Of a DNA stretch of 64,000 nt, positions 10,857-60,344 are shown in pieces. The notes beneath the pieces are model-generated. The model was not told the DNA's origin. It saw nothing but the letters and a program-made list of their open reading frames with translations, and did not search any database. The stretch comes from an uncultured Nitrospiraceae bacterium. GTDB lineage: Bacteria > Nitrospirota > Thermodesulfovibrionia > Thermodesulfovibrionales > SM23-35. Location of the stretch: positions 1,120,001 through 1,184,000 of the forward strand of contig CAVSHB010000001.1 of assembly GCA_963727775.1 (NCBI GenBank). The letters run 5' to 3'. Every line of letters starts with the position of its first letter. The stretch's first letter is position 1. A program made the position numbers and the translations under genes.

Positions 10857-11366
10857 TTATCTCTCTCTATGCTCCTCGCGTCGTTCTTCCCTTCTTTCTC
10901 CGTGCCTTCCATCCCGTCGCTCCTCATGTTTTCCTTGCCGCCAATGTTCGTCTTTTTCCCAGTATTTATTCTTTTCCCATCTTTTCCAGTTTTTGTTGAA
11001 TTCTTTATAGGGAATATGTCTGTATCCGGGCGGAATATGACGATATTCCGGCGGCAGTTCTATTAAGGCACCCGGAACTCTTGCGGGTGCAATAAAGCCC
11101 CACGGACCGTTATAAGCCCTGGATCTGAACCAGCGACCTTCATAAGGGCGGTACCAAAAGCCGTGATAAAACAAAACATCAACGTCAACATCGGGGACAA
11201 AGTAAACATAAGACCCGGGGACCACCACCAGAGAAGGCGGCGCGGCAAACTCATAGGCCGGGATATTGATCCCTATGCCGATATCCACTCGCGCATCGCT
11301 TTGGGCTGAAAGACCCGTCAGAATCAGCAATGCTGCTCCGACAACCAAAAAACCTAACTTCTTCAT
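10857..11366 (-). CDS. Secreted Trp/Tyr-rich protein with charged His/Arg/Glu tail
   Basis: Signal peptide MKKLGFLVVGAALL; RBS; paralogous to 59550-60344. Confidence 0.75.
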   Translation of the reverse strand: MKKLGFLVVGAALLILTGLSAQSDARVDIGIGINIPAYEFAAPPSLVVVPGSYVYFVPDVDVDVLFYHGFWYRPYEGRWFRSRAYNGPWGFIAPARVPGALIELPPEYRHIPPGYRHIPYKEFNKNWKRWEKNKYWEKDEHWRQGKHEERRDGRHGERREERREEHRER

Positions 11367-11418
11367 AACACATTCTCCTTTCAGAAATTGAAATATTTTC
11401 TTATTATACATAACGGAA

Positions 11419-11661
11419 CTATTTTTTCTTCCTTTTCATCAGTCTCTCGTATTTTTCCGCTCCGACACACTCCCTTGCGGCAGGGCACCACTCAAGGCAG
11501 GTAGGCCTCATTTCACGAGATATTGTTTTTTTGCAATTCTTGCAGACGATCTCTGTCTCATCCGACCAAATCTCCGAAGCGGCGTCACACCAGAAACACT
11601 TTATCTCTTCAGGATAAGGAGTTTTGATCTCTCTGTTTCCGGGACAACTTTCTTTCAACAT
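11419..11661 (-). CDS. Small Cys-rich metal-binding protein
   Basis: CPG, CxxC, CxxC, CxxWCxxAxxC; ATG lies 4 nt after the stop of the read-through DUF1573 gene. Confidence 0.75.
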   Translation of the reverse strand: MLKESCPGNREIKTPYPEEIKCFWCDAASEIWSDETEIVCKNCKKTISREMRPTCLEWCPAARECVGAEKYERLMKRKKK

Positions 11662-11665
11662 ACAA

Positions 11666-12040
11666 TTATTTTACGGTCGCTTTGAGAAAAAGAGAAATTA
11701 TATGTTTTTTGGGATCATTCGTAAAAACCTGAATATTCTTGGTGATAGGTCCGACCCTTCCCTTAATATCGACCTTCGCGGTAATCTTACCCTTTTCTCC
11801 AGGCTTCAAGCGGCCCGAACTGGCCACTGCGGCTGCACACCCTCAGGAAGGGACCAGTTTTTCAATGACGAGTTCTTTGTCCCCTTCATTTGTAAAACTA
11901 AATGTATGTTCTATTTCATTATTCTGCGCTACTGTTCCCAAATCAAAGGTTTCCGCATCGAATACTATGGAAGGCTGTGCATAAGATATCACAGGAAAAA
12001 GCAGTAAAAAACCGATCAATAAAAACTTTTTCATATACAT
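11666..12040 (-). CDS. DUF1573 domain protein with in-frame TGA, probable selenoprotein (S-U-G-C)
   Basis: ORF stops at LVPS-TGA (11843-11845) but continues in frame GCAAAVASSGRLKPGEKGKITAKVD...VFTNDP...LKATVK-TAA, completing the DUF1573 pattern (SCGC ... L.PGE.G.I ... SNDP); SECIS-like hairpin follows the TGA. Confidence 0.85.
11809..11828 (-). promoter_or_regulatory. Putative bacterial SECIS hairpin
   Basis: mRNA AGUGGCC-AGUUCG-GGCCGCU, 7-bp stem, loop begins 21 nt after the UGA, G at loop position 2. Confidence 0.65.
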
Positions 12041-12108
12041 ATATTACACCATCCCTAAAAAATATTCATTGATAAGAGTCTGTTTATAAACTGCAATTCC
12101 GAAAGAGT

Positions 12109-12177
12109 CGTCATTCCCGTGGAAACGGGAATCCATTTTTTCAAGGTTTCTGGATCCCCGCCTGCGCGGGAATGACG
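12109..12177. repeat. CGTC-type REP-like palindromic pair
   Basis: CGTCATTCCCGTGGAAACGGGAATCCA ... TGGATCCCCGCCTGCGCGGGAATGACG, two inverted hairpin units. Confidence 0.8.
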
Positions 12178-12263
12178 AACAAAGACCCAAAAGCGGGGAG
12201 CTCCAACGCTGCTTGAGTATTAACTTATTCGGATGTTTTCAGTTATATTGAATAGATAACCAG

Positions 12264-14817: not shown

Positions 14818-15395
14818 AACTATTACACCCTGCGGTCTCTGCCGCAGTTCCGATGTACGTAGCGCAGTTGGAGGAAAATACCAGTAGGTTGATAGAATAC
14901 CTATGGGATGGTAGATATTGAGCAGGACATATGGCGGTGGTATCACAATATTTCGGAGTGTTACTATCACATACAAATAACGGTGAAGTATCGGAAAGCA
15001 CTTTTGGACAAGAAAGTAGAAGGAGCGATAGTAGAAGCTCTGAAAGGAATAAAAGAGAGGTATGCGATAGAGATCAGTACAATTGGATTTGATCAAAACC
15101 ATATGCATATACTGTGTCGATATTTACCGAAATATTCAGGAGGTCAGGTAATCAAGATAATAAAGAGTATAAGCGGGAAGAAAGTATTTGAAGAAAATCC
15201 TGAGGTGAAAAAAGATCTATGGGGAGGAGAGTTTTGGACAGATGGGTACTATATCGCAACGATCAGCGGCAAAGGGAATAAACAAGTAATTGAGAAATAC
15301 ATAAGAAATCAAGGAAGAGGCAAAGACCTTGAGCAGGTCAGGCTGTTTGAATTTTGACTTTGACGCCCTGCGGTCTCTGCCGCAGGGTTCTTCAC
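14818..15395 (+). mobile_element. IS200-type element (tnpA only), copy 1
   Basis: Identity with the second copy spans 14812-15396; subterminal hairpins CTGCGG-TCTCTG-CCGCAG at both ends; no TIR or TSD; exact ends inferred. Confidence 0.88.
14908..15357 (+). CDS. tnpA: IS200/IS605 family Y1 transposase
   Basis: HUH motif (HMH), LWGGEFWTDGYY, YIRNQ. Confidence 0.93.
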   Translation: MVDIEQDIWRWYHNISECYYHIQITVKYRKALLDKKVEGAIVEALKGIKERYAIEISTIGFDQNHMHILCRYLPKYSGGQVIKIIKSISGKKVFEENPEVKKDLWGGEFWTDGYYIATISGKGNKQVIEKYIRNQGRGKDLEQVRLFEF

Positions 15396-15408: not shown

Positions 15409-16180
15409 GTGGACATCAATAAATTCTGTCCACTGTTTATTGTGTGCTGTCTAATGCTCGCTTTCATTTCATGCGCGCACCGGAATGAGCGGATCTTTAA
15501 GAAGAGCAGGATCCTGATGGATACATTGGTTACGATTACGGTCGTCTCGAATTCAACGGAGAGCGCCGATAAAGCAATTGACGCTGCGTTCTCAGATAGT
15601 AAATTACAGGTACCTTATCATCGACCAAAATAGCTCTACTTGCTTCCTCAGAAAAAAAGGCATGCTTATTGATCCGGGAGGGATCACAAAGGGATATGCC
15701 GCAGATAAGGCAGTTGAGACTTTGAAAAAGCAGGGCATACGTTCAGGCATTGTCTCCGTCGCAGGGGAAATCAAAACATTCGGTTTAAAGCCCGACGGAA
15801 AACCGTGGAAGGTAGGAATTAGAAACCCAAGGGCAAAAAACAATGAAGATGACATAATGGCAACTATTGAACTCAATGATACGGCCATATCCACTTCCGG
15901 AGACTATGAAAGGTGCTTCTTACTCGACGGCATAAGATACCACCATCTGCTTGACCCGGCGACAGGCCGGCCAGGCAGGCAATGCCGCAGCGTAAGTGTT
16001 ATAACAAAACAAGGTACATTTACCGACGCATTCGCAACCGGTGTGTTTATCCTCGGCCCTGACAGGGGAATAAAGGTCCTCGAAAATCTTGGGTTTGACG
16101 GGATTATAATAGACAGCCTGGGGAAAATATATATGACTCCCGGCATCAGGGGAAAGGTTGAATTTAAAAAGTCTGTTTAA
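15409..16180 (+). pseudogene. apbE: FAD:protein FMN transferase (ApbE) with internal deletion and frameshift
   Basis: Lipoprotein N-terminus with LMDTLVTITV ends near 15595; a second frame carries DPGGITKGYAAD, STSGDYER, YHHLLDP, DAFATG; the central segment is missing. Confidence 0.8.
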
Positions 16181-59477: not shown

Positions 59478-59549
59478 ATGGATAAGGGGCATTCCGCGAA
59501 AACACATTTATCCTGAATTTCCGGAGCGCCCCTTCAAGGAGGTAACAAA

Positions 59550-60344
59550 ATGAAAAGGTCATTTTTGGGAATATTACTTTTGGCGTTGGTAATTGCAGTT
59601 CCTATTCCAGCGATGGCAAGGGTAGATATAGCCGTTAGTATTTCTCTGCCGCCGCCCATCGTATTTTCCGCACCACCGGATGTGATAGTGATGCCTGATA
59701 CGAGCGATGTTTACGTTGCTCCCGACATCGATGTAGACCTCTTTTTCTGGAATGGTTGGTGGTGGCGTCTATGGGAAGGTAGTTGGTATCGCTCACATTA
59801 TTATGACCGGGACTGGGGTTACTATAACAATGTTCCAAGTTTCTATTTTGATGTGGATCCAGGTTGGAGGGGATACTACAGAGACCATAATTGGTACGGG
59901 CACCGATGGACCTATGAACGGATTCCTCACCAACGACTTCAACAGAATTGGAAGGGCTGGAAAAATGATCGACATTGGGAAAAGCAAGGAACCTGGGGCA
60001 TCCAGAGTTATCAACCTCGACCACAAAAACAGAGACAGGAACTAAGACAACAAAGGCAACAGCAATATCAACAGAGGCCTGAGGTTCAGCAGAAGCAAAG
60101 ACAACCTAAGGAGAAAGTTCAGCAGCAACAGCAAAGACAACCTAAGGAGAAAGTTCAGCAGCAACAGCAGAGACAACCTAAGGAGAAGGTTCAGCAGCAA
60201 CAGCAGCAAAGACAGCCTAAAGAGAAGGTTCAGCAGCAACAGCAGCAAAGACAGCCTAAAGAGAAGGTTCAGCAGCAACAAAGACAACCTAAGGAGAAAG
60301 GAAAACCTGAAAGAGGAAAGGAAGAAAAACAGGATAGAAATTAG
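59550..60344 (+). CDS. Secreted Trp/Tyr-rich protein with Gln-rich repeat tail
   Basis: Signal peptide; paralog of 10857-11366; (Qn-RQPKEKV) repeats. Confidence 0.8.
   Translation: MKRSFLGILLLALVIAVPIPAMARVDIAVSISLPPPIVFSAPPDVIVMPDTSDVYVAPDIDVDLFFWNGWWWRLWEGSWYRSHYYDRDWGYYNNVPSFYFDVDPGWRGYYRDHNWYGHRWTYERIPHQRLQQNWKGWKNDRHWEKQGTWGIQSYQPRPQKQRQELRQQRQQQYQQRPEVQQKQRQPKEKVQQQQQRQPKEKVQQQQQRQPKEKVQQQQQQRQPKEKVQQQQQQRQPKEKVQQQQRQPKEKGKPERGKEEKQDRN
60083..60300 (+). repeat. Coding tandem repeat, about six units of 30-36 bp
   Basis: GTTCAGCAGCAACAGCAAAGACAACCTAAGGAGAAA and variants, encoding VQQQQ(Q)RQPKEK. Confidence 0.9.

Follow-up and report, generated by a model that had tools for sequence, protein, structure and literature searches.

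A Nitrospirota DUF1573 gene with an in-frame TGA very probably read as selenocysteine, and a possible thiol-oxidising role for its U-G-C motif

A 65-amino-acid open reading frame (ORF; 12040-11843, minus strand) in the genome of an uncultured Nitrospiraceae bacterium ends at a TGA, and raises the question of whether this codon terminates a gene or encodes selenocysteine (Sec), and of what the longer product would do. The frame lies in the window analysed here, a stretch of 64,000 nucleotides of that genome. Beyond the TGA, which is codon 66 (11845-11843), the frame continues for 58 sense codons up to a TAA at 11668-11666, and the next gene, an 80-amino-acid ORF, begins at 11661, after a gap of 4 nt. 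The coordinates confirm this arrangement as given in the original prediction, which did not name the strand; the gene is on the minus strand throughout (Table 1). The start codon may be the ATG at 12034 instead of 12040, because homologs start with MKK.

Table 1. Features of the DUF1573 locus and related loci of the host genome (G000). Positions without a contig prefix are those of the window.
Feature	Position	Strand	Basis or remark
80-aa Cys-rich ORF	11419..11661	-	frequent neighbour; conserved; follows the DUF1573 gene in 10/30 loci
DUF1573 selenoprotein gene	11666..12040	-	124 codons + TAA; PF07610 match on read-through
Mature PapD/HYDIN-like Ig domain, 103 residues, all beta	11669..11977	-	AlphaFold2 + Foldseek (predicted)
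Bacterial SECIS hairpin, 7-bp stem	11809..11828	-	loop AGUUCG at 11821-11816; -11.5 kcal/mol
Cys68, predicted partner of U66	11837..11839	-	invariant in 41-row alignment A2
In-frame TGA, codon 66, U of U-G-C	11843..11845	-	conservation; column alignment
Signal peptide, residues 1-21, predicted cleaved	11978..12040	-	sequence + hydropathy
Two selD copies	C1:1546371-1547294 and C4:188434-189357 (G000)		each with in-frame TGA + hairpin
Second selB flanked by two 95-nt tRNA-Sec-like genes	C1:1561763-1566859 (L075:6768-11860)		outside the window
MauE (CGC) then exported rhodanese-like gene; VKOR-like–thioredoxin (CPAC) fusion	C1:1538673-1539711 and C4:312024-312980 (G000)		

Translated through the TGA, the protein matches PF07610 with 87.6 bits (gathering cut-off 26.1 bits) over residues 25-123 and profile positions 1-98 of 98; PF07610 and PF22544 are its only Pfam matches. 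Matches were found in 45 of 61 related genomes, with the TGA inside 45 of the 48 matching places. The TGA column was identical in all 30 loci examined, and it coincides with the position at which Cys-coding homologs have the first Cys of SCGC, in agreement with what had been proposed for the end of the 65-amino-acid ORF. The TGA is aligned with Cys in homologs and conserved in Sec-using kin, and close homologs carry TGA, not TGY, which speaks against a private nonsense mutation. Past the TGA, codon differences were 524 synonymous and 589 non-synonymous, and by codon position 854 in the third versus 407 and 278 in the others; the part before the TGA behaved alike. The TGA is spanned by contigs of two sequencing runs from different studies, with no mismatch there among the differences listed (38 more exist). 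As suspected, ORF callers miss the gene: it is cut in two wherever Sec is used. A search of the protein database with the full read-through sequence produced 2 matches among 18 candidates, which is uninformative on rarity, since Sec forms are mostly stored cut. A scan of named genomes yielded at least four distant Cys relatives, and a plasmid search two distant Bacteroidales matches.

The 7-bp stem noted in the original prediction is present behind the UGA, its 6-nt loop (AGUUCG) beginning 21 nt past the codon, with G as the second loop base. According to the available text of PMC13188914, bacterial SECIS elements have a loop of 3-9 nt with a G within the first two positions and a stem of 4-16 bp, lie 16-37 nt from the UGA and have an energy of -7.5 kcal/mol or lower. 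The hairpin agrees with this model throughout (6 nt, G second, 7 bp, 21 nt, -11.5 kcal/mol), as had been claimed, and covariation adds to the fit. The stem positions were paired in 87% of alignment cells versus 17-44% with slid partners, with 14 two-sided changes, and 0 of 500 shuffles came as high; the kin counted here are not independent. RNAalifold, unaided, predicted five of the seven stem pairs, and 13 of 28 rows have a disrupted innermost pair. The AGTT loop stands at its fixed position in 58 of 59 TGA forms versus 3 of 24 Cys forms, identical 60-nt stretches being taken once. Regional folding energy was rejected as evidence for the element, as it was no better than that of shuffled sequences (z = -0.20 for a 63-nt stretch and -0.29 for a 41-nt stretch); the hand-picked 20-nt hairpin alone gave z = -3.33. 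The hairpin is, thus, better than chance by conservation and not by folding energy. A loop-plus-stem pattern modelled on this element was found behind 115 of 128,633 genomic TGA triplets and misses both host selD genes, because their hairpins carry loops other than AGUU. A motif-and-hairpin screen of the host genome for further selenoproteins returned mostly noise. Separately, a frame at C1:973779 (minus strand) contains an in-frame TGA in the context U-G-A-C-G-F-A-G-C, flanked by long open frames and accompanied by a hairpin; we take it to resemble an RnfB-type Fe-S selenoprotein.

The Sec machinery, the absence of which would have spoken against the original prediction, is present in the host genome (96.8% complete): it encodes selA, two selB, two selD and tRNA-Sec(UCA), with the SelA, SelB and SelD families above their cut-offs. 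The second SelB (626 aa) is 67% identical to the first, and both tRNA-Sec-like genes beside it have GCA (Cys) anticodons. This is the same arrangement as the selC*/selB* system of PMC5389517, the available text of which names selC* in Nitrospirae and places a second selB only in two deltaproteobacterial groups. These additional genes could suggest that the TGA is read as Cys, and a database protein (P0002) has W here, most likely from a wrong genetic code at gene calling; the TGA might also be a true stop in a pseudogene or split gene. We consider all of these most improbable. Conservation extends to the TGA, the SECIS element and the pattern of coding behind the TGA, this codon is a stop elsewhere since it terminates homologous genes of this family, and insertion of Cys by the extra tRNAs was rejected because GCA anticodons read UGC and UGU, not UGA. 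Given the Sec machinery, the conservation of both TGA and SECIS, and the standard bacterial model, it is very likely that codon 66 is read as Sec. SelB would bind the AGUU-loop hairpin, bringing Sec-tRNA to the codon.

We compared the form of the gene with the presence of selA. In a phylum-wide sample, 130 of 301 Nitrospirota genomes had a match, and the selA check covered 80 of these, 31 picked for stop-free forms and 49 with TGA forms. Of the former, 26 gave no selA match, and 42 of the latter gave one. Five genomes of the check, as well as G059, have selA and yet the Cys form. In genus g3 selA was not found; the DUF1573 gene was not found in G002 of this genus, and what is left of it at the corresponding locus of G026 (80% complete) is a remnant that has lost the U-G-C core. 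The TGA is kept despite the lack of an intact selA in G004 (no selA match) and in G008 and G021 (selA fragments), and in family f22 seven of the 35 TGA-form genomes have no intact selA, six of them being less than 90% complete and one 96%. The selA fragments contain no masked bases (L073, G021:C105:4711-5083; L074, G008:C7:51939-52196). They may reflect a loss of Sec use that is still under way, or else a fault in the assembly.

We analysed the architecture of the read-through protein. Residues 1-21 comprise a basic start, a hydrophobic core and S-x-A ahead of a conserved Q-P, and conservation among homologs begins at Q22. On the basis of this N-terminal sequence, the protein is predicted to be exported and its signal peptide cleaved. 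AlphaFold2 models the mature domain as all-beta (pLDDT 94.2), and Foldseek matched the predicted model to 2QSV (TM 0.86) and 2E6J (TM 0.80); the Ig-like fold of the original prediction, more precisely PapD/HYDIN-like, holds in this model. A search of solved structures gave no match with the single sequence and 2QSV alone with a profile (E 0.0036). The U-G-C motif is modelled on the loop joining strands 36-43 and 48-52. Cys68 is the sole cysteine of the protein, which leaves U66 and C68 as its only selenol or thiol residues; alignment A2, in which the cysteine is invariant, has 41 rows, L036 being left out for masked bases. It could be argued that the Ig domain serves for binding or as a chaperone and that its Se-S bond is purely structural. 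The PapD/HYDIN-like fold would suit this, as would the absence of the motif from the aligned repeat of 2QSV (Porphyromonas gingivalis), and the host genome has 13 further PF07610 matches, all in long proteins and none with a stop. This is nevertheless very unlikely: upkeep of a UGA and a SECIS element across a phylum is costly, the motif is deleted in G026, where selA was not found, and in most haem-fused relatives the CxC is separated from the first haem by a similar distance, ~76 residues.

Evidence on function comes from fusions and neighbours in the relatives. In distant relatives the same domain, in U or C form, is fused to a diheme cytochrome c; among the best 150 library representatives, 34 had a CxC plus two or more CxxCH, and one library cluster includes a member named as Bacteroidota. 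The fused domain terminates in a class I cytochrome c with a conserved M-P motif, a type whose usually high potential makes it an electron acceptor. The predicted model of a fusion (pTM 0.52) has an uncertain domain arrangement, and its fold search gave only Ig matches among the matches listed. In families f25 and f21 a DsbA-like gene (CPHC or CSHC) is immediately upstream of the Cys fusion, and P0157 is a three-domain DUF1573-diheme-DsbA fusion, the start of which is also seen in L111 (partial). Haem-fused and stand-alone forms are scattered among each other in a quick tree of 67 domains, in which 9 of 64 branches are starred; we, therefore, claim no order of events. DsbA-family matches in L133-L139 and further loci (families f22, f2, f4, f19 and f11) often contain one in-frame TGA, and judged from their frames these are likely to be DsbA-like selenoproteins.

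We then asked which known DsbA oxidases accompany the two forms. Among 61 genomes picked by hand, 2 gave a match to DsbB, 8 to VKOR and 14 to MauE. At least one of the three was present in 3 of 25 haem-fusion genomes versus 15 of 24 stand-alone genomes, a count that left out 12 of the 61 genomes (no match, remnant or other fusions) and classed five stand-alone forms by frame length only; the Fisher p of 3e-4 overstates the difference, because the split follows lineages. DsbA matches occurred in 21 of 25 haem-fusion genomes versus 12 of 24 stand-alone genomes, and 9 of the 24 stand-alone genomes had none of the three oxidases. DsbB and MauE adjoin DsbA matches in G043, G064, G067 and G106.

Sec/Cys exchange marks redox sites. 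The DsbA and haem fusions, the oxidase split and the CGC site of MauE suggest that U/C-G-C is a thiol-oxidising site, and the reading we favour, with a probability of roughly 45%, is that the U-G-C motif acts as a periplasmic thiol-oxidising relay. On the inter-strand loop, U66 and C68 would alternate between a reduced selenol/thiol state and a strained selenenylsulfide, and in the oxidised state the motif would accept two electrons, with a thioredoxin-fold CxxC or a substrate dithiol as the donor. In diheme-fused relatives the haems would receive these electrons and feed them into respiration, so that the fused forms would act as soluble DsbA oxidases. Selenium would speed the exchange and would be dispensable, because lineages without selA use C-G-C.

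The same neighbourhoods can be read in the opposite direction. In f21 loci TlpA/redoxin genes stand ahead of the DsbA-DUF1573 pair, and these would fit a reducing path equally well: a DsbD/CcmG-like reductant relay by which thiols of the periplasm would stay reduced, in support of processes such as cytochrome c maturation or protein repair. Both the pcm-like repair gene found next after DUF1573 in 11 of 30 loci and the abundance of multiheme proteins in the host lineage (L075) would suit such a relay. A class I cytochrome c with M-P is usually an acceptor at high potential, however, and the linked DsbA has the oxidase-type CPHC or CSHC, and we regard a reductant relay as quite unlikely.

Homologs in nos clusters or beside rhodaneses also count against the thiol-oxidising relay. 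In the former, paralog-like U-x-x-C forms occur with NosD, NosL and redoxins, one of them fused to SCO1/SenC and others to a carboxypeptidase-regulatory-like domain, which would be consistent with a soft-metal site that binds or reduces periplasmic copper for the assembly of copper enzymes. For the U-x-C motif of the window's protein this is rather unlikely: the U-x-x-C forms differ in spacing and make up their own branch (SH-aLRT 95, quick tree), and the window's gene has no copper neighbours and its product no His or Met near the motif. The nos-cluster proteins are found in L125 (G300:C23:19400-28000), L124, L067 and L068; L124 is the SCO-DUF1573(U) fusion, and in G300 a single frame encodes two domains with Sec, of which the second has U-K-R-A and lacks a Cys.

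The rhodanese neighbours raise the possibility that the motif carries sulfane sulfur (persulfide or polysulfide) together with a periplasmic rhodanese, the haems being an electron source or sink. A rhodanese adjoins the gene in L069, L105, L107 and L127 by Pfam, and in L070 by likeness, and the available text of PMC13510729 describes a polysulfide-reducing multiheme selenoenzyme in Nitrospirota. Three of the four Pfam-confirmed rhodaneses are divergently transcribed and belong to one family, though, while the host's rhodanese adjoins MauE and not the DUF1573 gene, and DsbA is the more consistent partner and occurs fused. We consider a sulfane sulfur carrier unlikely.

For the window's own protein the thiol-oxidising relay is one step weaker, since the host genome has no diheme counterpart or matching DsbA. 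The protein ends at residue 124 with no CxxCH pair behind the Ig domain; in the 96.8% complete host genome a diheme-domain counterpart was not found (weak generic cytochrome matches, E ~1e-4), and neither was a PF01323 DsbA at E 1e-5 or a match to the fusion-linked DsbA. Of the 13 other genomes of family f1, only 3 gave a DsbA match. A stand-alone form without haems would, therefore, need a separate acceptor, which might be a free c-type cytochrome or the host's MauE or VKOR-thioredoxin protein (Table 1). The presence of the latter two counts against the relay, as the host would have no need for a further oxidase.

The neighbours of the window's gene (uvrA, the 80-amino-acid ORF and pcm) are uninformative on redox, which also counts against the relay. 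In a survey of 30 loci (flanks of ~1.5 kb, some shorter), the DUF1573 gene was divergent from uvrA in 20, and the gene 3' of it was the 80-amino-acid ORF in 10 and a pcm-like gene in 11. The 80-amino-acid protein has three Cys pairs and one further Cys and gave no Pfam or NCBIfam match above cut-off; a promoter-like site at 11725-11697 precedes its ORF. This ORF and the 184-amino-acid one downstream of it were rejected as fixed partners of the DUF1573 gene (10 and 1 of 30 loci, respectively). The 184-amino-acid protein (10857-11411, minus strand) starts in a signal-like manner, is rich in Pro, Trp and Tyr in its core and ends in a charged tail; it has three paralogs in the genome, one of them within the window near 59500-60000. 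Between the DUF1573 gene and uvrA lies a REP-like palindrome pair (12096-12185); five more partial copies of it occur in the genome, and unrelated metagenome contigs cover it very deeply. A transposase ORF (14908-15357), presumably IS200/IS605-like, separates uvrA from an apparently broken ApbE-like gene (15409-16180).

The DUF1573 protein is a catalogued kind of selenoprotein and not a new one. The available texts of PMC9312934 and PMC13188914 list a DUF1573 selenoprotein with the motif UGC and one Sec, and the novelty implied by the original prediction, thus, does not stand. PMC9312934 credits this selenoprotein to Zhang and Gladyshev 2007 (PMC1976440), where, in the text available, OS_HP2 is among six new families and has no function given; from table order, citation and an NCBIfam match we infer that OS_HP2 is the DUF1573 row of the reviews. 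All 41 rows of alignment A2 match NF041425 (OS_HP2_seleno) at E <= 0.001. The window's protein scores 78.6 bits at full length and 79.5 bits as the mature domain, below the cut-off of 100, and therefore belongs to a sister subfamily and not to the OS_HP2 model's own. It shares PF07610, U-G-C, one Sec and a SECIS element behind the UGA with the protein of the reviews, whose entry, as far as available, contains no function, fusions or context, in contrast to the present analysis. The family is indeed catalogued without a function, as the original prediction had it for this protein, though the fusions and neighbours of its relatives suggest periplasmic thiol-disulfide chemistry.

Since the family was already catalogued, the recoding is not a discovery; what it offers is a solid correction to the annotation of a conserved gene, with matches in 130 of the 301 sampled genomes of the phylum. 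What is added here are the links to diheme cytochrome c and DsbA, mostly in genomes where no DsbB, VKOR or MauE was found. In the titles, abstracts and passages of the literature searched, DUF1573 was not linked to haem, DsbA or disulfide formation, and the main text of PMC13326102 makes no mention of DUF, fusion or cytochrome. A 2026 preprint on MauE (bioRxiv 10.64898/2026.03.05.709764) gives, in its available text, 20.1% of its species as having no DsbB, VKOR or MauE, some of them with proven structural disulfides. The pairing of DsbA with DUF1573-diheme is a concrete candidate for part of this missing-oxidase gap, and the haem-fused relatives may be a missing route to bacterial disulfide bonds. 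A bolder proposal, which we put forward tentatively and consider doubtful as a whole, is that U/C-G-C DUF1573 forms the catalytic head of a soluble, haem-coupled DsbA oxidase of the periplasm, a fourth class of such enzymes, in which electrons would flow from DsbA through C/U-G-C and the diheme to respiration. It would serve Nitrospirota and some Bacteroidota without DsbB, VKOR or MauE, and the window's protein would be a haem-less head feeding a free cytochrome or MauE/VKOR.

Several known systems resemble parts of this arrangement. PapD/HYDIN-like (ASH) Ig domains share the fold, with the CxC absent from the aligned part, and we know of no redox role for them. MccSep, as described in the available text of PMC13510729, which leaves DUF1573 unmentioned, combines Sec, c-type haem and an Ig-like domain in a single polypeptide, also in Nitrospirota; it differs in its five haems and its haem-ligating Cys, and the likeness is one of description. 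Closer in proposed function are the DsbA oxidases. According to the same MauE preprint, as far as its text is available, MauE replaces DsbB by means of a CGC active site, which is like the C-G-C of DUF1573. Haem-fused DUF1573 adjoins or is fused to DsbA, and DsbB and MauE likewise adjoin DsbA. DsbB, VKOR and MauE are proteins of the membrane that presumably hand electrons to quinone, and the window's protein has no match to their families (PF02600, PF07884 and PF07291); unlike them, DUF1573 is a soluble Ig domain that would use c-type haem.
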